64,000 nt of DNA, taken from a virus (Duplodnaviria > Caudoviricetes). Position numbers and translations under genes: made by a program. Positions 2,447 through 52,375 of the stretch are shown in pieces. The stretch covers positions 395 to 64,394 of IMG/VR virus record IMGVR_UViG_3300023210_000031; one strand, written 5' to 3'. Numbering within the stretch: position 1 is the first letter of the stretch; every line of letters starts with the position of its first letter. Below the pieces are notes generated by a model. The model saw only the letters and a list, made by a program, of their open reading frames with translations. It was not told the origin of the DNA and searched no databases.

Positions 2447-2475
2447 ACTGTAGCAGAGTGATCTCTATCTGTCAA
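2447..2475 (-). promoter_or_regulatory. sigma70-type promoter TTGACA-N17-TACAGT, GATC in spacer
   Basis: Hexamers read directly; GATC at 2460. Confidence 0.7.
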
Positions 2476-2793
2476 GCATATAATCAAGAAAAAGCACTAG
2501 ATCTGTGATATAAATCACACCCTAAAATGCTTAGCAATTCCGTACCCTTACAAGGGGGAGCTATTTATTATATAAAAGAACGAAGGGGTATTGACAGACT
2601 ACTTATATTGTGACTAGATACTACTAGCTTTTTCACTATATCCCAGTACCTCATTAGTATCCCTTGCTTACCCTTATCCCTTATATTTATATAACCTTAT
2701 TATACTATACAGGCACCACCACTTCTACTGTTAGAGCTTTGTAGCCCCAACTACTCCTTTCCCCCCTTATATAATAATAAAACTAAGCCCGTT

Positions 2794-2832
2794 TTGGCTG
2801 CTCATTGGCTGCTCATTGGCTGCTCATTGGCT
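2794..2832. repeat. 11-bp tandem repeat TTGGCTGCTCA x3.5
   Basis: Exact copies at 2794, 2805, 2816, partial at 2827. Confidence 0.9.
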
Positions 2833-2860
2833 AGTTCTTGGCTGGTAAGCTGGGCTCGCT

Positions 2861-3265
2861 TTATCGCCTGTATTTACCTCCCTCAATATCAGTAATCACA
2901 AAGGCAATCTTCTCCCGCTCTGCTTGCTCTTTCTTGGCTAGCTGTAAGGCTTGCTCTTCCCTCTTTGCTTGGTATCTATGTACATGTACTCCTACAGAGA
3001 AGGAACTCTTGAACATAGCGAACAAGCATATTGCTCCTAAGATTATTGAGTGTATTATAACTGCTAGCTCTAATGGATCAGCTTTCTCCATCATCAATAC
3101 TTCTACAGCTAACAATGTAGATACTATAAACAATCCATAAGACAATACACATAACATTACTGGGTATGCTATATGATACTTCTCTTTTGCTAACTCTGTC
3201 TTCATTAGGTTATTGTCTATCTTGTTTGCTATACTACCTAATATGTTTTTTATTTTTTGTATCAT
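2861..3265 (-). CDS. membrane protein (2 TM)
   Basis: Two hydrophobic segments. Confidence 0.6.
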   Translation of the reverse strand: MIQKIKNILGSIANKIDNNLMKTELAKEKYHIAYPVMLCVLSYGLFIVSTLLAVEVLMMEKADPLELAVIIHSIILGAICLFAMFKSSFSVGVHVHRYQAKREEQALQLAKKEQAEREKIAFVITDIEGGKYRR

Positions 3266-3425
3266 CGCTTATTATTTCTCCTTGCTGATGCTTATTATCT
3301 TTACTTGGTTGCTGGCTTGCTCGCCTTGCCTCTTGGCTAGCGTTCGAAGTCTTGCCATCAAGTATGGTATTACCGGGACCATTCCCAATACTGCTGCTAT
3401 TTCAATTGGACATATATGAATCATT

Positions 3426-3620
3426 CTATTCCTTCTTACCTAATGTTTCTTTATAGTGCTTATCACACAATGAGCTTCCGTCTTTTCCTTGCCACTCTTT
3501 CTTCTCAAAGCAGTGATCACATTTGTTCTGGAAGTCTATCTCTACCATAAGCATTCTATATGCTATCTGTAATATCTTTCTCTTTAGCTTCTGGATATTC
3601 ATAATATTTATTTCTTTCAC
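3426..3620 (-). CDS. small Cys/His (Zn-finger-like) protein
   Basis: CDHC...LCDKH. Confidence 0.45.
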   Translation of the reverse strand: MKEINIMNIQKLKRKILQIAYRMLMVEIDFQNKCDHCFEKKEWQGKDGSSLCDKHYKETLGKKE

Positions 3621-4360
3621 TCTCGGCTTAATTCTTCCAAGAGATGCTCGTATGTGCTGCTGTGGTGGTATACTTGCACCACTGTTCCGCCAGCCGACAA
3701 TACTGCTTTGGCTAGCGAGTGATCGTTGCCTCCAACCTCACACTTGTCGCCAAAGAAAACAATCTCTTTGCCGATGATGCCCTTGCTTGACTGTAGGTAG
3801 TCCAAGACTTGTGACTTGTCCTTCCCCTTGAGGCTTATGTCGATGCTTATCTCTCCCCCTACTGAAAAGTCATAATCACTGTGCCTCTGGCTCATCCTCT
3901 CTACAAAGGCTTCTCTCTCTTTCTCAACCTTATCAAAGGAAGCATACTTCTTTCGCTCTGTATGGGGTATGAGGCGACCACAGGATGAAACATTGATCAT
4001 TCCTACCCTTCTCTCTATGTGATTGCCATACCTTAGCGGGAAATTGCTCTTTCTTATGAAATCACCACAGTCAGATAGCAACTGGTTATCTTCTGGAAAC
4101 TCGTTGGTGTATACCACCTTCCCACTCTCCGAGTATTGGTTACCTAGGCAAGTGAACACTCCCGTGAACTTGGCTATGACTTCCTTTGGTAGCTGCTCTT
4201 CCAACTTCTCTGGGTCTGAGCCTGTTACAATATAGCGATGAGCTGCTGATGGGAGGGCTAGCCATTCCGTAAGCAGTTGTAGCTCCTTCTTTGTTATCCT
4301 TTTTCTAGGCTCCGTCAGTGTGCCATCAACATCAAAAAGATATATACGATTCTCGCTCAT
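3617..4360 (-). CDS. HAD-IIB hydrolase, eukaryote-type phosphomannomutase-like
   Basis: FDVDGTLT, VTGSD, GGEISIDI, FFGDK..GGND motifs. Confidence 0.85.
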   Translation of the reverse strand: MSENRIYLFDVDGTLTEPRKRITKKELQLLTEWLALPSAAHRYIVTGSDPEKLEEQLPKEVIAKFTGVFTCLGNQYSESGKVVYTNEFPEDNQLLSDCGDFIRKSNFPLRYGNHIERRVGMINVSSCGRLIPHTERKKYASFDKVEKEREAFVERMSQRHSDYDFSVGGEISIDISLKGKDKSQVLDYLQSSKGIIGKEIVFFGDKCEVGGNDHSLAKAVLSAGGTVVQVYHHSSTYEHLLEELSRE

Positions 4361-4704
4361 TACTCCTCCTCGCTGTCGTAGGGCAGCCCCAACATGCCTG
4401 CTGCATAGAGATCAGCATCGAGCTCGGCATCGGCAATATCATAATATTGCTTCCCCTTCTCGGTATTTTCGTGGCATTTCTGTAGTCGCTCGTAATAGAG
4501 AGGGAGGGCTTCCATTGTCAACTCACTACAGGAGTGTTCCACATAGCTAGCCTTAATCCATATGGGGCTAAAGTTTCCCCAATTCCACCATCGGATCAGA
4601 TACAGAGAGCGACCCTCGTCCTTGCCGCAAATCAAGCCTACGTCGTCTGGCCATTCTCGGTCGTATATTATGGTCCCAACCTCGACCTTTAGTGGCTCTC
4701 TCAA
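4360..4704 (-). CDS. SH3-like paralog
   Basis: VGTIIYDREWPDDVGLI, closely resembles 5166..5519. Confidence 0.6.
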   Translation of the reverse strand: MREPLKVEVGTIIYDREWPDDVGLICGKDEGRSLYLIRWWNWGNFSPIWIKASYVEHSCSELTMEALPLYYERLQKCHENTEKGKQYYDIADAELDADLYAAGMLGLPYDSEEE

Positions 4705-4726
4705 AGCATCTCCCGAGCTAGCAGCC

Positions 4727-4754
4727 TAAGCAGTAAGCAATAAGCAGTAAGCAG
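4727..4754. repeat. 7-bp tandem repeat TAAGCA(G/A) x4
   Basis: Read directly, intergenic. Confidence 0.85.
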
Positions 4755-4775
4755 GCTCGTTGGAAAAATTACCGC

Positions 4776-4799
4776 GAAAAAATCGGGGCGATCTTTTAT
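4776..4799. repeat. 24-bp direct repeat copy 1 GAAAAAATCGGGGCGATCTTTTAT
   Basis: Identical to 6792..6815. Confidence 0.9.
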
Positions 4800-4914
4800 A
4801 CATCTTATAACATTACCATAACACAATACTCTTTGTCAAGTCTTTTCTAAAACAATCTAAAAATACCAACGATACAGGCTACTATCACTACCACATAACC
4901 TATCCCTACCACGG

Positions 4915-5166
4915 TTACAAACAGTTCCATTTGCCTTTCGTCGTTATCCCCAACTTCACATTTGTTACTCTGACTTCTGACTCTTTCAACTTGAGCCTGA
5001 GCTTTTTATTCTTTTCCTTCTCTCGCTTCAATTTTGCCTTACAGTCATCAAGAGTCTCAAGCAGGTTCTTCACATCAGTATAGCTGCTTATGGTATGCTT
5101 CTTTATCTCTCTTATGTCCTTCTCCTTAAGCACACGAGGGAAAGTCGGTTCCTTATTCTTTGCCAT
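4915..5166 (-). CDS. basic coiled-coil hypothetical protein
   Basis: GGAG RBS, Lys-rich. Confidence 0.55.
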   Translation of the reverse strand: MAKNKEPTFPRVLKEKDIREIKKHTISSYTDVKNLLETLDDCKAKLKREKEKNKKLRLKLKESEVRVTNVKLGITTKGKWNCL

Positions 5167-5519
5167 TATAAAACATCTCCTTTACTCGGCTGCTCTTCGG
5201 ATACAACAACACAGCCCTCTTCCACATACCACTGTAGCATCCAATAGCATCTGTTTTCCTCACCAATGTGGTTGAACACATACACCCTGTATGGGTCTTC
5301 CCTGCTTTCATCCACAGCCACTATCAAGCCGAAGTCATCCGGATGCTCTTTATCCTGGATGAGATCTCCCTTCTTGAGGGTGGGTGTTCTTGGACTAGCC
5401 CAGGTTCGCCGGTCTTCATCAACTGGTGCTGGTGCCATTGAGCGATCATACGAGCTAGACTCCGAGGGATACCAATTGACGAATGTCGTCTCTTCGGGTG
5501 GCTTACTCTTCTTCGTCAA
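5166..5519 (-). CDS. SH3-like paralog
   Basis: KGDLIQDKEHPDDFGLIV. Confidence 0.6.
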   Translation of the reverse strand: MTKKSKPPEETTFVNWYPSESSSYDRSMAPAPVDEDRRTWASPRTPTLKKGDLIQDKEHPDDFGLIVAVDESREDPYRVYVFNHIGEENRCYWMLQWYVEEGCVVVSEEQPSKGDVL

Positions 5520-5742
5520 GGAAAAGGTACTCGTTCATTGACTGGAGGGTGGTGAGGGAGTCTTCTGCCGAGGCAAGCTTATCTACCAGCCCGGCGATTT
5601 CCTCCACGATGGTTGAATGATCAGCCACAGCTATTGGTTCATTGATATACATATGTAATGTTACCCGGTGGCGGGCAATCTCTGCTTCGTAGCGGCTGGC
5701 TACGGCATCGAACAGTTCTTTCTTTCTAGCTTTTGAAACCAT
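5503..5742 (-). CDS. small helical phage protein
   Basis: GGAG RBS; P.AVADH..IVEE helical pattern. Confidence 0.6.
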   Translation of the reverse strand: MVSKARKKELFDAVASRYEAEIARHRVTLHMYINEPIAVADHSTIVEEIAGLVDKLASAEDSLTTLQSMNEYLFLDEEE

Positions 5743-5760
5743 GTTGTCTCTCCTTCTCTT

Positions 5761-6036
5761 TTACCAGGTAATGCCGTACAGCCAGTCTCTCATGCTCCTG
5801 CTGTTGGCTAAGTATGCGTCGTGATGGTAGTGCTCTCCATCTGGCATTATGATTATATAATCTTCAGTCCTACAATTGGGATCGTTAGGGTACCAGCCGG
5901 ACAGCGGAGAAGCTGAATCTTCGTTAACCAAAGTGTAATTCAGCTTCTCCAAGCCCGGCTCAAGACTATACCTCTTACACAAATCAAGATACTTCTCTAC
6001 CTGTTTCCAAGTTATCCTTCTTGTGCCATCGCTCAT
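5761..6036 (-). CDS. hypothetical protein
   Basis: ORF in operon. Confidence 0.55.
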   Translation of the reverse strand: MSDGTRRITWKQVEKYLDLCKRYSLEPGLEKLNYTLVNEDSASPLSGWYPNDPNCRTEDYIIIMPDGEHYHHDAYLANSRSMRDWLYGITW

Positions 6037-6040
6037 AAGC

Positions 6041-6235
6041 CTAGCTTATGTCTCTGGGTTGGATGTAATCAATCTCCCGCTTCAGGGTGTTGAGGAGCTG
6101 TTCGACTGATTCTAGACGGTCCAAGCATCGTGCCTCAATCTCGTTGATTTTATCGATGATGATATCACAATCATCAATCTTCTTACCGATAAGAGAGCCC
6201 TCTGCTACTGCTAACAAACTATTATTTTCTTTCAT
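6041..6235 (-). CDS. coiled-coil hypothetical protein
   Basis: ORF in operon. Confidence 0.5.
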   Translation of the reverse strand: MKENNSLLAVAEGSLIGKKIDDCDIIIDKINEIEARCLDRLESVEQLLNTLKREIDYIQPRDIS

Positions 6236-6272
6236 TCTCGGATCCTTCTTTTCTTTCTGTTGGGGGTTATGT

Positions 6273-6536
6273 TTATTTGCTGGCAGGGAGTACCTGGCAG
6301 ACTACGTTCTCCTCAGAGAGGAGAAGAGCTTTATCTCGGTTTTCTACTTCACCGGAAATACCTTGTAGGCAAGCGACTTGATTGCCCAGAGCAACCACGA
6401 TGTCACCCGAGTGATAGCGAGACTTGTTATGGTCAGTAACTCGGAAGAAGGCATATGGGGGATTCACAGTCTGTCCCACCTCTGTGGGCTGGACCTGATC
6501 TACCTTTATGTATCCTTCGGCTGGCTTGATAATCAT
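6273..6536 (-). CDS. divergent GroES-like protein
   Basis: IKP..GYI.V start, GDIV, LLLSEENVV end follow the Cpn10 layout. Confidence 0.45.
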   Translation of the reverse strand: MIIKPAEGYIKVDQVQPTEVGQTVNPPYAFFRVTDHNKSRYHSGDIVVALGNQVACLQGISGEVENRDKALLLSEENVVCQVLPASK

Positions 6537-6556
6537 CTTGTGTATCCTTTCGTTCC

Positions 6557-6721
6557 CTACTGGAGGGTGTCTACATCGTCTTCTGGGAGGAGGTATTCAT
6601 TGCCGTCCTCGTCTTTTACTTTATACACTGTGGGCTCCAAGTGGTCAATTATTTCTAACACTTCCACCTTGCCTCCCCATATAACATCACAAATCTTCTC
6701 GCCTATATGGTGCTTACTCAT
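6557..6721 (-). CDS. small SH3-like protein
   Basis: IGEKI...VEVLE...YKVK. Confidence 0.5.
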   Translation of the reverse strand: MSKHHIGEKICDVIWGGKVEVLEIIDHLEPTVYKVKDEDGNEYLLPEDDVDTLQ

Positions 6722-6740
6722 CTCTGTTGCCTTTCTATTC

Positions 6741-6769
6741 ATTATAGCGGATCATTTCCAGTATGTCAA
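6741..6769 (-). promoter_or_regulatory. consensus sigma70 promoter TTGACA-N17-TATAAT, GATC at 6750
   Basis: Perfect hexamers. Confidence 0.85.
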
Positions 6770-6791
6770 GCTAAAAGTAAGTGCTTGGTGT

Positions 6792-6815
6792 GAAAAAATC
6801 GGGGCGATCTTTTAT
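6792..6815. repeat. 24-bp direct repeat copy 2
   Basis: Identical to 4776..4799. Confidence 0.9.
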
Positions 6816-6844
6816 TGTCGTATCTGTCTACCAATGTCTATAAC

Positions 6845-7702
6845 TCATGGCTTTGATACCATCAACACTTCCACGGCTTTCTTCGCTTTAAAGCCGGTAT
6901 CGGTCTTCTTTCTCCTGCCTGCCGTATAAGTGACAGGGAAATCAACCAAGAGAGTCTCTCCCTTCAGTGCCTCAAAGAAGCCGTCATCAAGCTTTCTATT
7001 CGAAAGCATGGCATGAGCTCCCCTACTGGCACAAGAGTGGAAGTGATCAACAACCTTCTTTTGAAATTCGTCATCAGACCGTGTGCCGTAGTTAGTAAAG
7101 CATCCTCTATAGGGCGGATCCAAGAACACATATGAGCCTTTGCCGACCTGGGATAGTGTTTCTGAGAAATCAACGCTCGTCAAAGTACACCGCTGGAGGG
7201 CTTCATTCCAAAGCAAGACATTATCTTTATCGTAAACTTTGTCTTTTTGATTTAGGAGTCCTGCCGGTGTGCCATATCTACCATTAGTATTCTTGTTTAT
7301 CTGCCATATGCCATTGAATCCCGTCTTCATGAGAAAGTATAATGTCGCTGCTTCAGTTGTCTTGTCCCACTGCTGATAATCGTAAGCGTGTTTGTGCCGG
7401 AGGGAGAAATAATACTGCTTCCTTTCCTCTTTGGAGAGAGGAAGATATTCTTTTGATAACTCATCCATCCTAAGAATAAACGACTCCACGTCGCCTTTGA
7501 TGGCTGAGTATATAGACACAATAGACTCGTTAATGTCGTTTAGAAAGAACCTAGCTTCGGGGTTCCTCTTGTATGCCCACACAAACATGGCGCCACCGCC
7601 GCAGAAGGGCTCATGGTAAGAAGAGAACCCAGTCGGCAAGTGCTCCTGGTACTTTTTGAGCATTTTGGTTTTGCCGCCAGCCCAGATGAATAATGGCTTC
7701 AT
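6845..7702 (-). CDS. dam: D12-class (Dam-family) N6-adenine DNA methyltransferase
   Basis: WAGGK, EPFCGGGA, NDIN, FNG, LDPPY motifs. Confidence 0.92.
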   Translation of the reverse strand: MKPLFIWAGGKTKMLKKYQEHLPTGFSSYHEPFCGGGAMFVWAYKRNPEARFFLNDINESIVSIYSAIKGDVESFILRMDELSKEYLPLSKEERKQYYFSLRHKHAYDYQQWDKTTEAATLYFLMKTGFNGIWQINKNTNGRYGTPAGLLNQKDKVYDKDNVLLWNEALQRCTLTSVDFSETLSQVGKGSYVFLDPPYRGCFTNYGTRSDDEFQKKVVDHFHSCASRGAHAMLSNRKLDDGFFEALKGETLLVDFPVTYTAGRRKKTDTGFKAKKAVEVLMVSKP

Positions 7703-8205
7703 GATAATCGCCTCTTGACTGTGTTAGCTAGTTCTCGTACATTTGAGCTGGTTAGGATAAAATATTGTTCTGGTTCTAGGAACTCTCTAAATTCGTTTCT
7801 ATACTTTTCTGGATTTATTGTAGATACTTTTCCCTTCTTCGAACGTGTTTCAAAAGGCTTTTTAGCAGCAAAAGTTCTTCCAGAGAAGACGATAAGGGGG
7901 AGATATCCTGCCTTCTCGACTTTCCCGTTAGCTACATACCGGTAGCATCTCTCGTGAGCATTTCCGCCGTTGAGACCTAGCTTATCATCAATGACAAGCT
8001 TTTTACCGTTTCTCAGATTCTCTATCAAAAGTTCAGGCTGGATTGTGGTTTTGCCAATAGCTATTTTAGGCTTCTTTCTTATCGAGTATTCTGTCGGGCT
8101 TAAGCTCTCTGTAAGCAAAGAATGAGTTCTTGCTTCGTTTTTTGAGGCTCTCTTGCCTGTATCGGTCTGCCAGTTTTCTCGTTCTGATAAATGTTTTGCT
8201 GCCAT
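7699..8205 (-). CDS. putative type II restriction endonuclease, MunI/EcoRI-like
   Basis: PE..IDDK then GNAHER; overlaps MTase start by 4 nt. Confidence 0.65.
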   Translation of the reverse strand: MAAKHLSERENWQTDTGKRASKNEARTHSLLTESLSPTEYSIRKKPKIAIGKTTIQPELLIENLRNGKKLVIDDKLGLNGGNAHERCYRYVANGKVEKAGYLPLIVFSGRTFAAKKPFETRSKKGKVSTINPEKYRNEFREFLEPEQYFILTSSNVRELANTVKRRLS

Positions 8206-8315
8206 GTAAATCTCCTAATCCTAAGTTGGTTCCAAAGCTTTCCCTTAGCGAAAGGAAAAGAAACTCCAAGGGAAAGCTTCGAAATGAGAAGTGTGCTATT
8301 TTTTAAAACAATTCA

Positions 8316-9299
8316 TTATAAACTTCGGTCATATCGGTCTAACAAGCTATCTTTGCCAATCTTTTTGGTCGGATATCCCAAGCCTAAATCCTTGTTTGCC
8401 TGCTTGAACTTTGACAAAATCCCCATCGAGATAGAAAACCCATCTCTGTTGACTTTCGACCCGCCCTCGGTTTTACATGAGCGAGAAAATTGTGACAAAG
8501 ATTGCTGAGAGGTCATTCCCGTAAACCACTTCGAAAACTCAGGGCTCCTAACGAGAGGTGTGTGGGTCATAAATAGCATAGACAAGGCAATAAAGAGTTG
8601 ATTAGGAAAAGCACTATCTTCTGGCTTTTCTAGTTGTCCAGTTGATCTCAGTATTCCAACAGCTTCCTTCCCAAGGGAAACATTTTCATCTCCAAGGATC
8701 GACATGACTGTCTCAGCGGATCCGACCTTAACTCGTGGTCCGTCGGGATCTCCGACACTTCCATTCTGCTCGCCGGAGCAATATACCGATAGACCCATTT
8801 GACCGATCTGTTGAGCTAGCTTCTTTTTGGCTCTGGCTCCGGACAAGACCTCATGGACAAAAACCTCTTCCCGCCTCAAGTCTGTACGACAGAGCTTGTT
8901 TTTCTCGACAAACCTTCTGTGAATCTCCCCTTTGCTTTCTACATCCACCACCCTAGCTAGCATCATATCTTCGTCTGGGTATGCTAGCTGAAAAATGTGC
9001 CTGGAGTGATCTCCGTCGTAAAGAATCCTCGTTCCATCAGGCAATCTTCCAACGGTGGGAGGATCCCATTTATCTGATTTGAAGCCACCGCCGTTCTTCA
9101 AGATTTTAGAGATGTTTGAATCTAAAGTATCTCGGTTTATCAAAGATTCTATTTTAACGGGGACGAGCTCAAGCTGTCGAAAGTAAGACTCTTTGCTCGG
9201 AGGTGGCACATACCCTGGTTTTGCCGCTTCCCGTAGCCTTAGTTCTTTATCAGGTCCAATTTCTTTTCCGGTTGATTTTTCAATTATCGTGTTTGACAT
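8316..9299 (-). CDS. ParB/Srx-like N-terminal domain protein
   Basis: P.VG..PDG...YDGDHSR, F...N motif. Confidence 0.65.
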   Translation of the reverse strand: MSNTIIEKSTGKEIGPDKELRLREAAKPGYVPPPSKESYFRQLELVPVKIESLINRDTLDSNISKILKNGGGFKSDKWDPPTVGRLPDGTRILYDGDHSRHIFQLAYPDEDMMLARVVDVESKGEIHRRFVEKNKLCRTDLRREEVFVHEVLSGARAKKKLAQQIGQMGLSVYCSGEQNGSVGDPDGPRVKVGSAETVMSILGDENVSLGKEAVGILRSTGQLEKPEDSAFPNQLFIALSMLFMTHTPLVRSPEFSKWFTGMTSQQSLSQFSRSCKTEGGSKVNRDGFSISMGILSKFKQANKDLGLGYPTKKIGKDSLLDRYDRSL

Positions 9300-9421
9300 A
9301 AAACACTCCTCATCTCAGGCTTCTAATCGCCCCTCTGAAGGTTGAATGTGGTATCGTACTTTTTCCTCAGAAGTTTTCGGACACCAGCTTTGTTGCTCTG
9401 CCTTATTGCTGAACATACTTT

Positions 9422-9450
9422 ATTATACCCGATCACTTTCATTATGTCAA
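9422..9450 (-). promoter_or_regulatory. consensus sigma70 promoter of ParB-REase-Dam operon, GATC at 9431
   Basis: TTGACA-N17-TATAAT. Confidence 0.85.
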
Positions 9451-9541
9451 GCATATAATCGGTGTTTTTTTACTTTTTTTATAACCTCTTGATTTATAAC
9501 AGGTTTTATTTTTACAGATCTGGATCAGATCTGCTTAGAAT

Positions 9542-9645
9542 ATCCATCGCCACAGATCAGAAAAAGTCGTTACTTTATAGTAGCATAGGAGCCTGACCGT
9601 AAGTGCTCGGATCTATTGACTTTCTCTGCTCAGGTGGCGATGGAT
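9542..9645 (-). ncRNA. candidate structured RNA (long stem with three-way junction)
   Basis: 12-bp perfect stem 9542-53/9634-45; 11-bp stem 9558-68/9618-28 with G-U only on minus strand; inner hairpins. Confidence 0.5.
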
Positions 9646-9668
9646 GTGTTTCAACTCGCTATTTCTTT

Positions 9669-10571
9669 TTATGCCGCTGCTTCAAACAAGGTGGGCATAA
9701 TCTCGCCAGCCGGGGCTATCACCACCACATCTGGCGGGAGGACTTCCAAGACCTTCGACAAGGATGCTCTAAATTGTGGATTATGATAATTTTCCTTCTC
9801 GATGCCTCCGGAGCCCTTCATTTGTAGTGCTAGTGGTCCAAGATAAATGGCAGAAGCTCTGCCGTTGTAATAGTTCGGCTCCCATTCGTAGCTACTACAA
9901 ATCTCGTCTATGAGGACATCCACAGGATATCCAACAAGCTTGTCAGCATTAGACTTCCCCGCTAGCGACGATTGGCACCATACCATGAAGTCCACTCCAT
10001 CGGTTGCGGTCACCCCTCTCTTAAAAACTACCTCTAGTATTTCACGCTTAATAGCGATATCGTTGAAATAGCTTAGAAATGCACCGCGAAGGTTTACTGG
10101 AATAGAATCCCACACTGCTCGTTGTCGCCTTTGTTCATGCTCGTAATCAAGAGAATCGTAGTCAACTCCTAGTCTATCACAATCGCTCTGAAACTTTTGA
10201 CTACACTTATCGCCGAAAAACAAATTAAAGAATTCCACCACATCTTCTGGGGTTTCCTTCACTTTGCCCAACTGAGCCAAAAGCTTAAGTTCTTTGATAA
10301 CCTGCATCTGAATCGTCGTGCCATTTGATTTTGGATTCTTGATACTGACACCATATGGCTTTACCCTGTTCGGACTTAATACCTCAATATCACTCTTGCT
10401 TGTTGCCGTCGGTGCGATATTCCCGCGAACAATCTGCTTTGCTTTGGTTGCGATTATGCCACTACAGTCTGCTGCATTGATACATTCTATAATCGCCTCC
10501 TCGAACTCATACCCTTCGGCTCGCCCTTTGGCGCCTGCTTCTTGTTTCTTATTCTTCTTCTTTTTATTCAT
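9669..10571 (-). CDS. putative type II restriction endonuclease, HinP1I/MspI-like PD-(D/E)XK
   Basis: G..FE, KSD...VSIK, LQMKGSG...QFR; overlaps C5 MTase stop. Confidence 0.7.
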   Translation of the reverse strand: MNKKKKNKKQEAGAKGRAEGYEFEEAIIECINAADCSGIIATKAKQIVRGNIAPTATSKSDIEVLSPNRVKPYGVSIKNPKSNGTTIQMQVIKELKLLAQLGKVKETPEDVVEFFNLFFGDKCSQKFQSDCDRLGVDYDSLDYEHEQRRQRAVWDSIPVNLRGAFLSYFNDIAIKREILEVVFKRGVTATDGVDFMVWCQSSLAGKSNADKLVGYPVDVLIDEICSSYEWEPNYYNGRASAIYLGPLALQMKGSGGIEKENYHNPQFRASLSKVLEVLPPDVVVIAPAGEIMPTLFEAAA

Positions 10572-11802
10572 TTACTTTATCCTTTCCCACGGTGGGGATG
10601 TTATTTATAAGTGCCTTCGCCATCATTGGCGGAAAGCACTCTCCTAGAACTTTCCTTAGAAAGCCCTCTCTCCTCTTAGTATGCTCTAAGTGATCTACCC
10701 AGTCTTCGGGCAACCCCACTATAGCACACAATTCTTTTATTGTTAATACCCTTGCATCAGAAAAAGTACCATCGCCGTTATCGTTGCCTGGATGTACATT
10801 GTTTTGACTATTGATAGAGCCATTTGTCATCCCCACAGTTGGAGCTGGTTCGTCCCACTTTATTCTTCTGTATGTGGACTCAAATCCGCTAACTTGTCTT
10901 GTCTCGATGGTAACTTCTTTAAGCTTTACAGTTTTTGTTTTCATCTTCCGATATCTCTTTCTCTTATCCGAACTGAACTCATTCATTCGTTCATCGTCTT
11001 GCAAGAGTTTCGCGAAACCATCGTGTCTAACTTTAGGGTAATAAATCTTGTTGTGATATGCGGTATTGCCGGTTGCCGTATGCCGCATCCAATTAATATG
11101 ATGTTTATTGTGTGTCCAATATTCCATAGAGTGCCACTTGATGTCCGATTTCTCCCCAGATTCAAGAGGTAGAAGGTGCCCAATAGCTTCACGAACAGTA
11201 GCCTTCTTTGTGAGCTTCTTCGGGGGATCCCACACCGGGCACCCTTTTTTAGAGAGCAGTGTGATCAATCGCTGGCGATGGTGGGGAGTGCCATAGTTTG
11301 CCGCATCTAGCACCTCATATCTCATTTCATAATCTGCCGCGAGCTCTCTCTCGATGTATGGCATAATGTTCGTTGGCTTATCGTCATCATCTAAAATAAA
11401 TGTCTTCTTGCTTGCCATGCCACGGACATTCTCAATAAGAGCATAGTCCGGCTGCAAGTCCTTGATCGCACGGACAGCTTGTTTAATCAAGCTGTTTTTT
11501 TCCTGAATCTTAGGATCGTCCTTCTTTGCGCGCAAGGCATGGGATGCACTCATGCCCTGGCACGGTGGAGTTGCTAGAATGAAATCAACACCGGCAGCTT
11601 TACTTTTAGAAATAATTTCGCTAAAAATATCTGACTTGGTAATGTCGCCGGCAATCATTTCTGTCTCGGGGTGCATCTTAGAGTAGAACTCTGCCCGATC
11701 TTCGAGCTTCTCATTGGCAACGACTACTTCTATACCACACTGGTCAAAATATGTTTCTCCGATGCCGACATTGGCAAACAAAGATAGGCATTTAAAATTC
11801 AC
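10564..11802 (-). CDS. dcm: C5-cytosine DNA methyltransferase
   Basis: SLFANVG, ATPPCQG, IENV, P..R.R, RVLT..EL, GECFPP; GTG start after GGAGGA RBS. Confidence 0.92.
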   Translation of the reverse strand: MNFKCLSLFANVGIGETYFDQCGIEVVVANEKLEDRAEFYSKMHPETEMIAGDITKSDIFSEIISKSKAAGVDFILATPPCQGMSASHALRAKKDDPKIQEKNSLIKQAVRAIKDLQPDYALIENVRGMASKKTFILDDDDKPTNIMPYIERELAADYEMRYEVLDAANYGTPHHRQRLITLLSKKGCPVWDPPKKLTKKATVREAIGHLLPLESGEKSDIKWHSMEYWTHNKHHINWMRHTATGNTAYHNKIYYPKVRHDGFAKLLQDDERMNEFSSDKRKRYRKMKTKTVKLKEVTIETRQVSGFESTYRRIKWDEPAPTVGMTNGSINSQNNVHPGNDNGDGTFSDARVLTIKELCAIVGLPEDWVDHLEHTKRREGFLRKVLGECFPPMMAKALINNIPTVGKDKVNE

Positions 11803-11833
11803 AATTCCTCCAATGACTATTTGCTGTGCGATC

Positions 11834-11862
11834 ATTATAGCAGATCACATTTGGCTTGTCAA
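11834..11862 (-). promoter_or_regulatory. consensus sigma70 promoter of C5 MTase-REase operon, GATC at 11843
   Basis: TTGACA-N17-TATAAT. Confidence 0.85.
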
Positions 11863-11876
11863 GCAGTATTTTCGTT

Positions 11877-12773
11877 TTATTTGGATGGTTGTTTGAGGTA
11901 TGTCTTCCGAGCCGCTGCTCGAAGTCTATCTAGGTATTTCGACTCTTCTTCTGGAAAGTCTATCTCGTTACGGAAATCGATGAATTTCAGCATCGTATCC
12001 ATCAGCGGGTAGCGCTCTCCCATCTCCTCTGAGAGGAGTTCCATAGTCTTGGCTTGCTTCTTACGGGCGAGGAGGAAGACTTCTCTGGGAGGGATGTCAA
12101 GAGCTCTGAAGTCGTCTTTTAGCTCCTTTAGCATCTCGAACTGCTTCATGTACCTAAAGAATTGCCATACGAGCAGATCTGCCTTGGCTATTGGTCCCAT
12201 TTCAGACATCATCTTGGGAAGGTATAGTGTTCCGAGTGCCACATGTCTTGCCTCGTCCTTTTCATACATCAGAAGCAGGTCCGATAGCACAGGCTCGATG
12301 TTTCTCTCCCTCACTACCTTGAACAGAGTAAGAGCCATCGGCTCAACCATCATTTGCATACCTAGTATCATTTTGGGTGTCGTGTCTGCTTCCATTATCG
12401 ACTGGAGAAAGTCTTGGGAGTGACTCTTCATTCCTTGGACATCGGCTGTCTCTATTCCTAGGAAACGGAGGTAGTCTCTCATCACATAAAAGTGTCTGGC
12501 TTCGTCGTGTGCCTGTGATGTCGCTGCCATCCTGGCTGGCTCGTCTTCGAACCGGGCTGCCAAGATGGAAGATATCTTCCAGGCTGCCAGTTCGCCCCAC
12601 AAGATGGTGCTAAAAATGTTTCCAAGGGCATTCTTTTTCTCTGGGGTAAGGCTTATTCCGCTGTTCTTTTCGATACATGCCTGGAGATATTCTCTACCAT
12701 CCCAGATGTTTTTCTGCCCCTTGTGGTAAAGTTGCTCTATTCTATTGCTATTTCTGTATTCTTCGATAGACAT
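11877..12773 (-). CDS. ferritin-like di-iron carboxylate protein (AurF-like)
   Basis: GE..A, DEARH, VE..A, DEARH duplicated ExxH motifs. Confidence 0.8.
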   Translation of the reverse strand: MSIEEYRNSNRIEQLYHKGQKNIWDGREYLQACIEKNSGISLTPEKKNALGNIFSTILWGELAAWKISSILAARFEDEPARMAATSQAHDEARHFYVMRDYLRFLGIETADVQGMKSHSQDFLQSIMEADTTPKMILGMQMMVEPMALTLFKVVRERNIEPVLSDLLLMYEKDEARHVALGTLYLPKMMSEMGPIAKADLLVWQFFRYMKQFEMLKELKDDFRALDIPPREVFLLARKKQAKTMELLSEEMGERYPLMDTMLKFIDFRNEIDFPEEESKYLDRLRAAARKTYLKQPSK

Positions 12774-12788
12774 AGGAGCGACCCCTTT

Positions 12789-13382: not shown

Positions 13383-13570
13383 TTGTTGTTCCCTTTGTTC
13401 TTTTTCCGATCCTGCTTCTGGATCTTCTTTTCTAGCTTAGATGTTTTCTCTTCTAGACTCTCTAGTCTTAGTTGGGTGGTGTAATAGAAGCCGCCAAAGT
13501 GAGCGACAGAGCCGCCGACTAGGGCTATCAAACCTAGGATGGTTGCTAGTGTTTTTAGGTCCACCTTCAT
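13379..13570 (-). CDS. TM plus coiled-coil small protein
   Basis: N-terminal TM; late motif at 13582. Confidence 0.55.
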   Translation of the reverse strand: MKVDLKTLATILGLIALVGGSVAHFGGFYYTTQLRLESLEEKTSKLEKKIQKQDRKKNKGNNK

Positions 13571-13580
13571 CTTGCTCCCC

Positions 13581-14780: not shown

Positions 14781-14785
14781 AGCTC

Positions 14786-15109: not shown

Positions 15110-15232
15110 AATATATAAATAGTCTTTCAAGCAGCAAAACCCCGATTTATATCTACCACAAATAGTAGGCAACACAGCCTGCTAGAATCAGATAGCCTAC
15201 AAAGAAAACGATTCCGAATGTTTCTACTACCA

Positions 15233-15508: not shown

Positions 15509-15514
15509 ATTATC

Positions 15515-17256: not shown

Positions 17257-17285
17257 ATCGTAACACAGAGAGATCACTCTGTCAA
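17257..17285 (-). promoter_or_regulatory. sigma70-type promoter TTGACA-N17-TACGAT, GATC at 17272
   Basis: Read directly. Confidence 0.75.
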
Positions 17286-23365: not shown

Positions 23366-23394
23366 ACCATATCACAGGAGATCAACTCTGTCAA
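23366..23394 (-). promoter_or_regulatory. sigma70-type promoter TTGACA-N17-TATGGT, GATC at 23380
   Basis: Read directly. Confidence 0.7.
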
Positions 23395-25532: not shown

Positions 25533-25593
25533 TCTTGTTGCTCCTTTGTGAGTAATGCTGATTTACATATTATTACACAAAGCAGAGATCATG

Positions 25594-25950
25594 TCAAGTC
25601 TTTTGTGAGGATTTTTTTACTCGGCTGGTTTTCTTGGACTTTTTTGCCCTCGATTTCTTTGGCTTTGCTAAGTCGCTGTTTTTACTCGCTTTAGGTGTTT
25701 CCGTCTTATTTTTCGACTGGTTAGCTCCCTCTAGTACCCGAATGCGATCTCTCTGGTATTCTACGAGATCACTTAGCTTGGACACCTCCGATTTAGATTT
25801 GACCAGTTCGGCAAATAAACTCTCAATTTGCTTTTCCATTTCTTTTACGATTTTTGCCGCCTTGGTGGGTATAACATGCACATTGCCGTTTTCTCTCATC
25901 GCCTGTGCCAGTTGTTGTGCCGGTGAAATTCGGCTTTGTTTGTTAGACAT
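25594..25950 (-). CDS. coiled-coil protein with Lys-rich histone-H1-like tail
   Basis: KPKKSRAKKSKK C-terminus. Confidence 0.6.
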   Translation of the reverse strand: MSNKQSRISPAQQLAQAMRENGNVHVIPTKAAKIVKEMEKQIESLFAELVKSKSEVSKLSDLVEYQRDRIRVLEGANQSKNKTETPKASKNSDLAKPKKSRAKKSKKTSRVKKSSQKT

Positions 25951-26793: not shown

Positions 26794-27072
26794 TCAGCTC
26801 TTTTCCAACAAGCAAAGATCTTGCTCGTCCATCCAAAGCTTCTTATCTCCTTGGGTCCACCAAACATACACCTTTGGTAACAGCACGGAAAATGACTTTC
26901 CTGCCTTGTGATCTCTCAAGTCGTGCATATCAAAACTCCTGAATTCTGTTGATAAAATCAACCCAACTCCCGATCTCAGAGAGAGATCACTTTTTAAGTA
27001 TACCAGATCTCCCACATGAAAGTCAAGCACTTTTTTCTGTCGTGTGTTCGAATCTTTAGGGTCCGTCATCAT
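26794..27072 (-). CDS. small SH3-like protein
   Basis: FHVGDLV...GVGLI...VYVWW. Confidence 0.6.
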   Translation of the reverse strand: MMTDPKDSNTRQKKVLDFHVGDLVYLKSDLSLRSGVGLILSTEFRSFDMHDLRDHKAGKSFSVLLPKVYVWWTQGDKKLWMDEQDLCLLEKS

Positions 27073-29469: not shown

Positions 29470-29498
29470 ATCATAACAGGTCGCATCTAATCTGTCAA
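29470..29498 (-). promoter_or_regulatory. tRNA promoter TTGACA-N17-TATGAT within 10-bp inverted repeat
   Basis: CAGATTAGAT 29462 / ATCTAATCTG 29485; GATC overlaps the -10. Confidence 0.75.
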
Positions 29499-29522: not shown

Positions 29523-29906
29523 CTATGAAACTACGGCACCTTCTGACCAAAAACGCTTATTCTTTCTTTCGTTTGTGATCACCAGAACTTCAATGCCGGC
29601 TGGTGTGATCTTATGCTTGTAGTATTCTAGGCACCCATAAAGTGGCTTGCCTTCTTTCCTCTGGAACTTTTGTCTCGGAGGAGGTCTGTTCAGGTATGCC
29701 AAGCATCCCTCGACTATTTCCTTCTCCGTAAGCCCATCTGACTTTAGCTCCTCATAATCAACTTCTAGGTATCCTCCGACAACCCAGCGCTTTAAGCCGA
29801 ATCCTTTGACATTCCAAAACATAGAGCCGTGATACCTGCCGTATTTCTTCTCTTCGTTCCTAAATGAGAACTCCTCGATTGGTTTCCATTTACAGGGGAT
29901 TTCCAT
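29523..29906 (-). CDS. hypothetical protein
   Basis: GGAG RBS. Confidence 0.6.
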   Translation of the reverse strand: MEIPCKWKPIEEFSFRNEEKKYGRYHGSMFWNVKGFGLKRWVVGGYLEVDYEELKSDGLTEKEIVEGCLAYLNRPPPRQKFQRKEGKPLYGCLEYYKHKITPAGIEVLVITNERKNKRFWSEGAVVS

Positions 29907-36625: not shown

Positions 36626-37105
36626 TTACCTAGTGATCGCTCCCATCAGCGGGTTTTGTTGCTTCCAGTGGTCCCGAAAAACAACAACTGCAGACGGAAA
36701 TGGAGCTGACATACTGCTATCGCTAAATTTGATTCGCCCTTTTATGAAGTAGATCTCGGCGGCTTTCATACAATATTCGTGCCAATACGATGTATCAGTC
36801 CGAGAAGGTATCAGCATTACAACAGTGGTCTTTTCTTTTCGACTCTCGTCGTAAGCCTTTTTTACCCAGCTCTTTATCGCCTTGCCATATGGTGGGTTGA
36901 CGAATATTGATTTGTTCGGTCCCCATTCCTGTGCTAGTCCGTCGTCGTCCTCCGTAAAGAAGTTCTTACATTTAGCATTATCGGTGGAGGCACAAGGATC
37001 CAAATCAAAGCTGAACTCCTCGTTTAGTTTGTCGAACAGCTTTTGAGGAGTTTCCCAACTCATATCTTTACTGCTAAACATAACCTTTTTTGTATTCTTA
37101 TCCAT
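36626..37105 (-). CDS. dam: phage-type N6-adenine DNA methyltransferase
   Basis: WETP, FDLDPCAS, NPPY, PSRTDT, APFPS. Confidence 0.92.
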   Translation of the reverse strand: MDKNTKKVMFSSKDMSWETPQKLFDKLNEEFSFDLDPCASTDNAKCKNFFTEDDDGLAQEWGPNKSIFVNPPYGKAIKSWVKKAYDESRKEKTTVVMLIPSRTDTSYWHEYCMKAAEIYFIKGRIKFSDSSMSAPFPSAVVVFRDHWKQQNPLMGAITR

Positions 37106-42223: not shown

Positions 42224-42252
42224 AGTATATCATATCACAGATCTCTTGTCAA
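42224..42252 (-). promoter_or_regulatory. dnaE promoter TTGACA-N17-TATACT, GATC at 42240, palindrome over -35
   Basis: ATCTCTTG-T-CAAGAGAT at 42241-57. Confidence 0.8.
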
Positions 42253-42284: not shown

Positions 42285-42932
42285 TTACGAGAGAATTTTC
42301 TTGGCGATGTTCTTTACAGCCATTCTCTCGTTCTTGGAGAGATCATTATATGTCTCCAGCCCTTCAGCGAAAGTAAATGGACGTTTGCCGACTCGGGTCA
42401 TAAATTCCGACTCTTTGCCCATTTTTATATCCCCTACGGATATTTGTTGTCCGAGCCCAGGGAATTCGCTGTTGTTAGTGCCAAGCAAGTATGCTCCCTT
42501 GCCGCCTTTTGGTATTACTAACACGGAGTCTTGGCAGAACTTCTTACCAATCTCCTCAACTCTGGAAGCGAAAGAAGGATCATCTTTGAGGTTGACTACG
42601 AAAAAGCTATCTTCCGACACTTCCATTGCCGAGGGTGTATCAAAGTCTTCGATGTAAGAGCCATCCACTTTGGTAACTCCGTAGCCGCTAGCCAATAAGG
42701 AAGCCTTCACATCTCGGTTCCGAAGCATGTTCGCGCTTTTCGCCTTACCCTTCTTCACTTCCTCTACCTCTTCCTCATACTCTGCTGAGTCTTCTACACA
42801 CCTGGAGGTGTCAGATGGATCTCCACGGAAGCCCGTGAGTATAGCCGTGTCATGCTCTCCAATATGCTGGTATACACGAGACAGAGATGACTCGTTCAAG
42901 TATTGTCGCCATTCATTGATAATCTTTTTCAT
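42285..42932 (-). CDS. putative SAM lyase (T3 SAMase-like) with N-terminal leader
   Basis: LTGFR, N..RN, GSYIE, EDS, QDSVLV in SAMase order; leader MKKIINEWRQYLNE. Confidence 0.6.
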   Translation of the reverse strand: MKKIINEWRQYLNESSLSRVYQHIGEHDTAILTGFRGDPSDTSRCVEDSAEYEEEVEEVKKGKAKSANMLRNRDVKASLLASGYGVTKVDGSYIEDFDTPSAMEVSEDSFFVVNLKDDPSFASRVEEIGKKFCQDSVLVIPKGGKGAYLLGTNNSEFPGLGQQISVGDIKMGKESEFMTRVGKRPFTFAEGLETYNDLSKNERMAVKNIAKKILS

Positions 42933-50363: not shown

Positions 50364-50365
50364 TC

Positions 50366-51490
50366 TTATACCTCTGATTCAGTTTCATCGTAAAAGTGTT
50401 GGGCATCTACATCCCTATTATCAAACTTCAGGACGACTTCTTCGTCCACAAGCCGTAAAACTCTATCTCGGAATTTTGAATCCAGCATGAATTCACCCCA
50501 TTTGGCGGCTTGGAATTTCTGTTCAGATCCATCACCATATTTGAGAGTCCACCATGGACCCGAGTTCATCAACTGGTCCGAAGACTGTATAGCCTCAAAT
50601 AAACTCTCGTCATCCCTCACCCCGATGTCTTTGCCCCACATAATCTTGAAATTACATATTCTGCCGGCTGTTCCAAATCGAGACTTTTCCAATCGAGCCT
50701 TAACTTCGTTGCCGACAATGAAACCCTTGTCGTCAGCGATGATGCTCTTCTTGCCTCGCTTGCCAGTCAGCCAAATTCTCAAACTGTAGGCATACATCAT
50801 CGACTTGCCTCCAGGAGTGGTATATTTTTCACTATCCGTCGCGTACTTCGGGTTCGCTACTTGGAGATTTGTCTTGAGCTGATTTAATACCAAAAGGGTA
50901 GACTGTGAGTTGGCTAGCGACACTATTAGTTTGGACATTCCCTTAGCCAATACACGAGCCTTGACAGCTACCGATTCGTTAGGGTTAAATGTTCCCTCTA
51001 CATCACTTACCGCTGGTGTCAAGGCGAGACTGTCCCAAATAAACAGCATCTTATCTTCCGTCGAATTCAAGAGCTCCTCAATCGTCTCCAGCACAAACTC
51101 AACAGAGCTCGCCTGGACATACAGAACTTCATCGACATTCAGACCGCTTTTGCTAAGAAAAGTAGGATCGATGGATGATTCCGAGTCGAAGTATACCACA
51201 TTGATTCCCATTTTCTGGGCATTGGCTGCTGTCTGGGCTGCCATATAGCTCTTTCCGGAGGCTTCTAATCCTGCTATCTCTGATATCTTTCCTACTGGGA
51301 TGCCAGCAGTCTTTCCTCGGCAAATGACACTATTTAGCCATGTGGAGCCTGTGGGAATCCAGTCTTTGACTTCAGTTGGATTATCTGTCGTAAGATCGTG
51401 TGCTACATTCATGCCAGCCTTTTTATTGATCTTCTTCCTAAGCTCATCGATGTTCAAAGAACCTTTTTTCTGTTTCAAACTTCTCACCAT
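50366..51490 (-). CDS. recA: RecA/UvsX recombinase
   Basis: GLEASGKS, DSE, WDSL, NQL, TPGG. Confidence 0.92.
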   Translation of the reverse strand: MVRSLKQKKGSLNIDELRKKINKKAGMNVAHDLTTDNPTEVKDWIPTGSTWLNSVICRGKTAGIPVGKISEIAGLEASGKSYMAAQTAANAQKMGINVVYFDSESSIDPTFLSKSGLNVDEVLYVQASSVEFVLETIEELLNSTEDKMLFIWDSLALTPAVSDVEGTFNPNESVAVKARVLAKGMSKLIVSLANSQSTLLVLNQLKTNLQVANPKYATDSEKYTTPGGKSMMYAYSLRIWLTGKRGKKSIIADDKGFIVGNEVKARLEKSRFGTAGRICNFKIMWGKDIGVRDDESLFEAIQSSDQLMNSGPWWTLKYGDGSEQKFQAAKWGEFMLDSKFRDRVLRLVDEEVVLKFDNRDVDAQHFYDETESEV

Positions 51491-51512
51491 AGCACAACTC
51501 CGTAAATAAAGT

Positions 51513-51544
51513 AAAAAAAGAGGCACCCGTTAACCCTGTGCCTC
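51513..51544 (-). terminator. intrinsic terminator after SSB
   Basis: GAGGCAC/GTGCCTC stem plus U-run. Confidence 0.8.
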
Positions 51545-51562
51545 CCCGTGGGTGTGTGATGT

Positions 51563-52315
51563 TTAACGAGTCATCAATTCGTCAAGGGCATTATCAACCT
51601 TGTTCACACTTTTTCCAGGATATTTTTCCACTTCACTGGAAAACTCCTCTGGATTGTCGGCTGTCAAATGAACATCCAAGAATCCTTGGACTTCGACAGT
51701 CGTCTTTTTCTCAAAGAGAGATTCAAAATCTGGTACAGTACCCAAAAGACCTTCACACTGCTCTTCGCTAATCTTATCGCTGCAAAGGCGGCTAGAACGT
51801 CGCTTTGGTGTCACCTTGGTCATAGGAAATTGACCTCCAGGTGGCTTACCGTAATGTAGATCCAGATCGATACCAGTTTCAATATCCGTAATATCCCCGT
51901 AGTCCGGATTCAGCACAAGACCCAGGAGAGTTTCATATACCGTCTTGGAAAAACCCCATAGACGGACTCCAAGCTCCTCTTCCCCTCGAACAAGGACGGG
52001 AGAGAAGAATCGAGATTTCACACCGAGCTGTCGTGCCATAGCTTTGCTCTCTTCATCGCCTTCTTGGTAAAGACCACGAACAAAACCACATACTGGGCAA
52101 TCCTCTCCAAAGTTATTCTTTGGACACAGGAAGCCGCCCTCTTTGCCGACACCATAATGGAAAGAAAAGCTCTTGAAAGGATCTCCGTCTTCAGTCGGAA
52201 CAATCCGTACAGTCTGTGAACCCTCGGAAGGTTTCCAGAACTGACTACCACCACCCTGACCTCGGTTTTTGAGGGTGCTGTACTTTTCTCTCATTTTTTT
52301 CATATCAATCGTCAT
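51563..52315 (-). CDS. gp32-like single-stranded DNA-binding protein
   Basis: FWKP, VRIVP, HY..C...CPVC Zn site, D..TG.D. Confidence 0.88.
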   Translation of the reverse strand: MTIDMKKMREKYSTLKNRGQGGGSQFWKPSEGSQTVRIVPTEDGDPFKSFSFHYGVGKEGGFLCPKNNFGEDCPVCGFVRGLYQEGDEESKAMARQLGVKSRFFSPVLVRGEEELGVRLWGFSKTVYETLLGLVLNPDYGDITDIETGIDLDLHYGKPPGGQFPMTKVTPKRRSSRLCSDKISEEQCEGLLGTVPDFESLFEKKTTVEVQGFLDVHLTADNPEEFSSEVEKYPGKSVNKVDNALDELMTR

Positions 52316-52346
52316 TTAAGACTCCTTTTACTTTTTGTTAGACACT

Positions 52347-52375
52347 ATTATATCAGATCACTTTGCTTATGTCAA
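52347..52375 (-). promoter_or_regulatory. consensus sigma70 promoter of SSB, GATC at 52356
   Basis: TTGACA-N17-TATAAT. Confidence 0.85.

Follow-up and report, generated by a model that had tools for sequence, protein, structure and literature searches.

Why does GATC, the word methylated by Dam, recur inside the promoters of an uncultured marine phage? The question is raised by a stretch of 64,000 nucleotides (the window, WIN), which makes up nearly all of a 64.4-kb IMG/VR virus record (IMGVR_UViG_3300023210_000031) estimated to be 35% complete and has a G+C content of 44.7%. The original prediction, made from the letters of the window, had noted GATC in the spacers of many of its sigma70-type promoters and had proposed that methylation gates transcription. 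We found that the enrichment is real and that the spacer GATC of these predicted promoters is the core of a longer oriented box, AAARTGATCTG (AAA-R-T-GATC-T-G), which spans approximately 10-11 bp and adjoins the extended -10 TG. The box is conserved and clade specific. A full-text literature search, in which subscription journals were not covered, so that unpublished status is not proven, returned no prior description of such a box; as far as this search shows, it is a new promoter element.

Almost all genes of the window lie on its minus strand, and the promoters are read on that strand too. The genes include those for DnaE, a DnaB-type helicase, a RecA-type recombinase, a gp32-type single-stranded DNA-binding protein (SSB), a small family-A polymerase, a class II ribonucleotide reductase, GroEL and ClpP, as well as one tRNA-Met and tail genes. 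DNA of the window is present in seawater and marine sediment metagenomes from several studies. A megablast search of 20 kb of the window against GenBank phages gave no match, and the best tblastn matches of DnaE were only ~30% identical; there is therefore no cultured relative or host.

To define promoters, we searched for TTGACW followed by a spacer of 16-18 nt and a -10 hexamer with A2, T6 and at least four of six matches. All promoters described here are consensus predictions. Of the promoter-like sites that the scan returned in the window, 22 were on the minus strand and 4 on the plus. GATC lay wholly within the spacer in 10 of the 22 minus-strand sites, as opposed to the 1.37 expected (binomial P = 2.9e-7) from the GATC density of the window (294 sites, 4.6 per kb; random 17-mers hold GATC 6.2% of the time). 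Among all 256 tetramers, GATC was the most enriched in these spacers. Elsewhere it was nothing special, with an observed/expected ratio of 1.24 across the window, 5.6 sites per kb in intergenic DNA and 4.5 per kb within genes.

The G of GATC was found at exactly -19 in five of the 22 promoters (P = 5e-8), a register that we refer to as class A. These five were the four promoters with a perfect TATAAT, which have TGATCnGnTATAAT in common, and the promoter at 27026-26997. In an independent scan of window positions 1-20000, three of the four perfect-TATAAT promoters matched the consensus at 12 of 12 positions. That scan was loose and not enriched overall (35 sites found versus 32 expected), so that it is informative only in its top matches.

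At this level the original prediction fared well. Its ten GATC coordinates (all of those in Table 1 except 27006) proved correct on the plus strand, as did the identical register of the four perfect-TATAAT promoters and the overlap of the GATC at 29469 with a -10 element, seen as TATGATC. The genes that it had placed behind the promoters starting at 11862, 9450, 52375 and 42252 were likewise as claimed. It had counted 16 promoter elements, compared with 22 in the present scan, and had missed the promoter at 27026-26997.

We then asked how far the pattern extends beyond the window. Relatives were gathered via the SSB protein and a pattern scan of IMG/VR, which yielded eight further motif-bearing contigs and five without the motif. 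The window and the former make up a box-bearing set of nine contigs, and the latter serve as a set of box-less sisters; all are fragments, with CheckV completeness values of 15-55%. The nine box-bearing contigs contained 152 promoter-like sites, 64 of which had GATC in the spacer or at most 3 bases from it. When only the 126 unique sites were counted, GATC was wholly within the spacer in 52, and in 30 of these it was at -19. Promoters of the same type in the five box-less contigs contained spacer GATC at chance level, in 6 cases out of 87 (Fisher odds ratio, 9.5; P = 7e-9). Both comparisons that the original prediction had called for, with the genomic background and with related phages, bore out the enrichment. 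On a tree of seven concatenated proteins, rooted only at its midpoint, a branch with an SH-aLRT value of 99 parted the nine box-bearing contigs from the five box-less ones. The box-bearing group is a deep clade of uncultured marine DnaE-encoding T4-like phages and consists of two deep subclades, between which core proteins are ~50% identical. The box marks a separate class that comprises ~40% of the predicted promoters in the clade.

Conservation was not confined to the four letters of GATC. The 30 class A promoters had A at positions -24 to -22 in 77-90% of cases, as opposed to 38-47% of GATC-free promoters of the same contigs. The respective frequencies were 97% and 58% for R at -21, 90% and 19% for T at -20, 83% and 57% for T at -15, and 97% and 59% for G at -14. 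The flanks of GATCs outside promoters (n = 2120) were flat. The converse test gave the same answer. When the flanks AAR-T-NNNN-TG were fixed, the core was GATC in 18 of 20 spacers; outside promoters, the same flanks enclosed GATC only once among 453 gene-strand cases and three times among 365 on the opposite strand. Therefore, the oriented box AAARTGATCTG is found almost only in promoters.

The box is also mobile. Besides -19 (30 promoters), GATC was seen at -21 (6), -25 (6) and -26 (3), among other registers. In the contig G006 the flanks are kept at the -21 register (AATGATCTGTGnTAnnAT); at four promoters of this contig AATGATCTG stands two bases upstream of the usual place, and a separate TGn comes after it. 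RTGATCTC at -24 to -28 is seen in other promoters, both in the window and in relatives. Additional GATCs at -14 to +30 of box promoters read TGATC, in either orientation, in 25 of 26 cases, compared with 48.5% of all GATCs and 14 of 23 at promoters without the box. A SeqA-type pairing of GATCs was considered and found unsupported as such, since a second GATC at -14 to +30 was present in 17 of the 52 promoters with the box and in 17 of the 74 without it (P = 0.31).

Orthologous promoters hold GATC while the flanks, the register or the leader change. In the dnaE promoter the window subclade has the box at -26, and G003, G004 and G010 have it at -19. The promoter of the gene at 16938-17258 retains GATC in four contigs (the window, G001, G002 and G010), down to 42% protein identity. 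The SSB promoter retains GCAAA(A)GTGATCTG, and with it the box, in relatives whose SSB proteins are 79-98% identical, while its 5' leader diverges. Where the box decays, the change falls within GATC: GACC is found in the window tRNA-Met promoter (GATC in G001 and G005) and in the G002 dnaE promoter, and GATT and GAAT occur in G008 and G006.

Individual window promoters are listed in Table 1. Second GATCs lie directly 3' of the -10 at 11830 in the promoter of the C5 methyltransferase operon and at 17253 in the promoter at 17257..17285. The promoter at 26997..27026 has a second forward box, AAAAGTGATCTCT, 21 bp downstream (GATC 26985). Downstream of the reversed box at 2447..2475, a second reversed box is found in the leader (GATC 2429), and both reversed copies are kept in G002. 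The promoter at 9422..9450 is present in two copies in G001, and the orthologue of the one at 23366..23394 in G001 and G005 contains the palindrome ACAGATATATCTGT and no GATC. In three genes, the start codon of the longest open reading frame (ORF), at 11834-11835, 17257-17258 and 6741-6742, overlaps or abuts the -10 hexamer of the gene's own promoter; the real starts are therefore further downstream. For the C5 methyltransferase, whose listed ATG overlaps the -10, the true start is probably downstream of that codon.

Table 1. Predicted promoters with GATC in or next to the spacer, and genes relevant to the box, in window coordinates
Feature	Position	Strand	GATC	Sequence or remark
Promoter with reversed box in spacer	2447..2475	-	2460	opposite strand reads AGAGTGATCTCT
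Class A box promoter of small ORFs, immediately 3' of the D12 methyltransferase gene	6741..6769	-	6750	...GGAAATGATCCGC-TATAAT
D12-class N6-adenine methyltransferase (PF02086; Dam family, TIGR00571)	6845..7702	-		accessory; among box-bearing contigs only in WIN, G001 and G006
Class A box promoter, operon of 327-aa protein, 168-aa protein and D12 methyltransferase	9422..9450	-	9431	...GAAAGTGATCGGG-TATAAT
C5 cytosine methyltransferase (PF00145)	10564..11835	-		window only among the contigs compared
Class A box promoter, C5 methyltransferase operon	11834..11862	-	11843	...AAATGTGATCTGC-TATAAT; 12/12 consensus
Promoter with box word in near-palindrome	17257..17285	-	17272	GTGATCTC within ACAGAGTGATCTCTCTGT; register -25
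Promoter with box word in spacer	23366..23394	-	23380	TTGATCTC; register -24
Promoter with box word directly after -35	25569..25597	-	25587	ATGATCTC; register -28
Box promoter with 18-nt spacer	26997..27026	-	27006	...GGGAGATCTGG-TATACT; register to -10 as in class A
tRNA-Met promoter, decayed box	29470..29498	-	29469	GCGACCTGT in window, GCGATCTGC in G001 and G005; GATC overlaps end of -10
127-aa protein	29523..29906	-		only small protein common to all 7 other box-bearing contigs covering the region; absent from the 5 box-less relatives
Phage N6-adenine methyltransferase (PF05869; TIGR01712)	36626..37105	-		in 8/9 box-bearing and 4/5 box-less contigs
dnaE promoter	42224..42252	-	42240	register -26
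SAM-lyase-family protein (PF23780)	42285..42932	-		WIN, G001, G005 and G003 only
Class A box promoter, gp32-type SSB gene	52347..52375	-	52356	TTGACA-TAAGCAAAGTGATCTGA-TATAAT

A box that is short, oriented and exclusive to promoters, that slides in the spacer and that recurs downstream in either direction is best explained as the binding site of a factor. We give somewhat better than even chances to the box being an operator-like site that is read by a sequence-specific trans-acting factor. The box is embedded in the spacer of near-perfect predicted promoters of host sigma70 type, usually with its G at -19 and with its 3' TG doubling as the extended -10, and it is also seen 2 to 9 bp further upstream, with extra copies just downstream of the -10 in either orientation. 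A putative sequence-specific protein, phage encoded more likely than host encoded, would bind it and would most likely shut down or time these very strong early-type promoters; co-activation in the manner of GcrA would be the alternative direction. Positions -24 to -14 form the region in which sigma region 3 and the beta-prime zipper touch DNA. Because the box overlaps the sigma region 3 contacts and class A promoters are near the optimum in every known element, occlusion or timing is the favoured effect.

Could the box be read by RNA polymerase itself? It would then be an optimised spacer plus extended -10, recognised by the host holoenzyme through sigma region 3 and the beta-prime zipper, that only raises promoter strength and requires neither a factor nor methylation. 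The box does abut and share the extended -10 TG, and TGn and TRTG-like motifs are common in all promoters of these phages. Class A promoters, moreover, are the closest to consensus in every other element: TTGACA and a 17-nt spacer are each found in 29 of the 30, TGn in 25 and TATAAT in 14, the last of these as opposed to 12 of 74 GATC-free promoters. Among known elements, the extended -10 (TGn) and, in Gram-positive promoters, the -16 motif TRTG (at -17 to -14) come closest to such a reading. The 3' end of the box supplies T at -15 and G at -14 in 25 of the 30 class A promoters, but this explains only the last two bases of the box; the conserved part reaches 10 bp further upstream, has C rather than a purine at -16, and can move away from the -10. 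A polymerase contact is also hard to reconcile with a box that shifts, flanks included, by 2 to 9 bp against both hexamers, and that appears reversed and downstream of the -10. Even the -10 hexamer is less well conserved than the four consecutive invariant bases of the box, and the box-less sister phages use the same TTGACA, TGn and TATAAT architecture.

Its occurrence elsewhere leads to the same view. In exact-match scans, the class A pattern TTGACA-N8-RTGATCTGNTATAAT was found in 38 stretches of IMG/VR, as opposed to 6 for a control pattern with AGCT replacing GATC and 5 for one with an 18-nt spacer. In 596 Gb of bacterial and archaeal genomes (185,579 species representatives), there were 19 matches, each in a different genome and most of them in Clostridia; no marine taxon came up repeatedly, and no genome showed recurrent use. 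The 38 phage stretches, set against 19 scattered single matches, argue against a general polymerase element or an element of a host regulon. We regard a box read by the polymerase unaided as quite improbable.

Recent recombinational spread of one promoter cassette, or chance, could in principle multiply a promoter with no selection on the box. Cassettes of this sort, the PeSLs, are known in T4-type phages, according to the parts of PMC2839356 and PMC4122927 available to us; in PMC2839356, to the same extent, they are a promoter with an adjacent terminator hairpin, conserved over their whole length. The promoters described here resemble PeSLs in being repeated, strong, early-type promoters in a variable gene region of a T4-like phage. 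There is also one clear cassette duplication, in which the G003 SSB promoter and its whole leader occur twice, before different genes. The two copies of this box promoter-leader (G003, locus L093, ~10157-10185 and 11303-11331; loci L118 and L119) are ~1.1 kb apart and look like a cassette that was copied along with a gene insertion. G003 aside, what the box promoters within one genome have in common is limited to the hexamers and the spacer box. They differ in the 5' half of the spacer, in the DNA upstream and in the leader, and a promoter with an adjacent terminator stem-loop, the unit given in the available part of PMC2839356, is not what is conserved. The box persists across lineages with core proteins ~50% identical, and the statistics exclude chance. 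Hitch-hiking is thus a very improbable source of the pattern.

The nearest analogues of the box would appear to be GcrA/CcrM in logic, Dam-sensitive promoters in the sequence word and the MotA box of T4 in phage biology. The MotA box replaces the -35 element at about -30, needs AsiA and is read by a phage protein. It is likewise a phage-specific box inside otherwise host-type sigma70 promoters, and it defines a temporal class. In the promoters described here the -35 is of consensus type (TTGACA in 29 of 30 class A promoters) and the box lies at -24 to -14, unlike the MotA arrangement, and neither Pfam nor PHROGs gave a match to the MotA or AsiA families among window ORFs.

Dam-sensitive promoters and operators of enterobacteria include IS10 pIN, dnaA p2, Mu mom/OxyR and agn43/OxyR. 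With these the box promoters share a GATC inside the core promoter (10/22 in the window and 52/126 in the clade) and A-rich flanks; they differ in that single loci are concerned there, whereas here one box at a fixed register recurs in tens of phage promoters. The regulatory GATCs of pap/Lrp have conserved A-rich flanks (TAAAAGATCG), which typify slowly methylated regulatory GATCs in the available part of PMC4417163. In the GcrA/CcrM system of Caulobacter, as the accessible text of PMC4647560 and PMC9976885 describes it, a methylatable palindrome lies within a longer asymmetric motif (YGAKTCK, best TGATTCG) in or near sigma70 core promoters, where it marks a subset and is read in methylated form by a monomeric cofactor that works upstream or downstream of the start. 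The box word TGATCTG has the same layout, with an extended asymmetric motif around a methylation word in some of the sigma70 promoters. That word is GANTC in Caulobacter and GATC here, and the box belongs to phages. GcrA (PF07750) had no homologue at E <= 0.1 in five box-bearing contigs (G000, G002, G004, G006 and G008), all of them fragments 35-55% complete.

These analogies bring up methylation gating, as the original prediction had suggested. A Dam-type enzyme (phage PF05869 or D12, or a host enzyme) would methylate the spacer GATC, and methyl groups at -18/-17, beside the extended -10 sigma contact, would alter polymerase binding, directly or via a methyl-reading cofactor. We consider this a possible but doubtful mechanism and, with the same reserve, the consequence that box promoters would fire differently on packaged, fully methylated DNA and on newly replicated DNA. 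The invariant core is exactly the Dam word, and the decay of the box falls inside it. GATC is not avoided in the window, in contrast to other palindromes.

The methyltransferase inventory of the original prediction (two N6-adenine enzymes, PF02086 and PF05869, one C5 enzyme, PF00145, and an S-adenosylmethionine [SAM]-lyase-family protein, PF23780) was confirmed. PF05869 is the only methyltransferase conserved across the box-bearing clade, but its presence in box-less relatives with chance-level promoter GATC indicates that this writer does not track the box. The PF05869 family presumably includes non-specific enzymes, and the phage methyltransferases are at most candidate writers of a mark at GATC. 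Non-specific phage-borne N6-adenine methyltransferases do exist, as stated in the available part of PMC3299994. The best solved relatives of the Dam-family D12 enzyme, which is present in three box-bearing contigs, are all GATC enzymes, but it has Q aligned to R124 of E. coli Dam, a residue that reads the fourth base pair and whose replacement in R124A abolishes discrimination there and relaxes specificity (PMC4417163, in the part available). Both D12 and C5 enzymes are accessory, and the SAM lyase gene of the window subclade would counter methylation. Above all, a GATC site alone leaves the conserved oriented flanks unexplained; that an oriented box of 10-11 bp is conserved, and not GATC alone, argues that something reads more than a methyltransferase site.

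What the original prediction had proposed thus divides in two. Its first part, that GATC is enriched at a fixed register and linked to a class of promoters, is real and conserved, which fits a regulatory role of the site. Support was not obtained for a Dam-type switch between packaged and replicated DNA that autoregulates restriction-modification genes, given the oriented flanks, the PF05869 gene in box-less relatives and the accessory status of the D12 and C5 genes. For autoregulation in particular, the promoters of the methyltransferase operons do carry GATC, but the search for a paired restriction enzyme gave only weak matches to REase_II (type II; E = 0.002-0.005), for the 168-aa protein at 7699-8205, which overlaps the start of the D12 gene and is shared only with G001; it returned nothing for the 327-aa and 300-aa proteins. 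Judging from these matches, the 168-aa protein and D12 may form a small phage-carried restriction-modification module. Several short palindromes are strongly avoided in the window (observed versus expected: GGCC, 5/155; ACGT, 22/237; CGCG, 19/155; GCGC, 26/155; TGCA, 64/237), in contrast to GATC, TCGA and AGCT. The host may thus exert heavy restriction pressure, but not at GATC.

If a factor reads the box, the favoured explanation, which protein might it be? In phyletic profiling, four proteins proved to be confined to the clade with the box. They are a MoxR-type ATPase, a DUF2201/VWA protein, one of 92 aa and the 127-aa protein encoded at 29523-29906. The distribution of the last (Table 1) makes it a candidate reader, though a weak lead. 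Its structural model had a mean pLDDT of 71.8, and its best structural Z was 4.7, with no solved chain reaching a Z of 5 among the 48,161 compared. The MoxR-type AAA ATPase and the DUF2201 (metallopeptidase/VWA) protein are encoded at 21475-22650 and 23436-24536. In G006 and G008 each of their genes lies directly behind its own box promoter, and in the window the box promoters at 25597 and 23394 are upstream of them.

Several observations weigh against an operator read by a factor. The promoters are predicted sites. No recognisable DNA-binding domain was found among the window ORFs with Pfam, PHROGs, NCBIfam or PADLOC, and hence no reader of the box, and the 127-aa protein had no family, atlas or fold match; in contigs as fragmentary as these, the reader may be encoded elsewhere, or the host may supply it. 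No functional split was evident between the genes driven by box promoters and those driven by box-less ones, with replication genes in both groups. A site as short and asymmetric as the box would be unusual for a classical dimeric repressor, and part of its 3' flank (TG) is simply the extended -10. Finally, a methylation mechanism predicts the exact GATC core equally well, so that the two explanations overlap; the factor reading the box may itself be sensitive to methylation.

A more far-reaching possibility is a phage epigenetic promoter code, in which a phage N6-adenine methyltransferase marks the box in ~40% of sigma70 promoters and a cofactor, GcrA-like in logic and unrelated in sequence, reads the mark. 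We think this rather unlikely; if true, a whole regulon would follow the replication and packaging state of the phage DNA. The promoter classes of uncultured marine phages are almost unknown, and the class described here, although defined purely from sequence, has firm statistical backing and has been conserved across deeply diverged lineages. Natural negative controls are provided by the sister phages, which have promoters of the same type but no box, and the box itself is a concrete short element suited to testing in synthetic promoters. Should methylation matter, it would constitute a regulon-wide epigenetic switch in a lytic phage. Should it not, the box cautions that promoter GATC alone does not imply Dam control.

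The resemblance of the box to what we take to be a CRP half-site, AAATGTGATCT, was considered and rejected, as the box lacks a second half-site and is wrongly placed for activation. The window does contain one perfect palindrome of CRP type, TGTGA-N6-TCACA, at 2504-2519 on the minus strand, with its centre ~71-72 bp upstream of where the promoter at 2475 starts. G002 retains it at the orthologous place with a different central hexamer, and it is the sole such site per contig, versus ~0.06-0.1 expected. This palindrome may be a class I activator site and a clue to a CRP-family regulator in the host.

The SSB gene differs between the two groups of phages in its leader as well. In the box-less relatives (loci L015-L049) the leader is longer, with a conserved hairpin followed by ACTATAG(C/A)C, and the box-bearing clade has a short leader without a hairpin. 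By analogy with T4 gene 32, the hairpin leader may be a translational operator.

Two ORFs of the window have no counterpart in any relative compared, including the 97-99% identical G001 and G005, and are recent insertions: a homing-endonuclease-like ORF beside dnaE (37906-38328; PHROG 7168) and a 424-aa ORF (32973-34247). In tblastn searches with window 38755-42189, the DnaE matches fell into two to three separated pieces in G006 (spread over 5.5 kb) and G008 (16 kb), which suggests inteins, introns or inserted genes in the polymerase gene.

A different phage group of lower G+C content (loci L106, L107, L111, L113, L116, L122, L125, L127, L128 and L130) has a single conserved promoter whose spacer holds two words resembling the box, AAGTGATCGATGATCTG-TTATAAT. 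This promoter stands before an apparent non-coding RNA and not before a gene.

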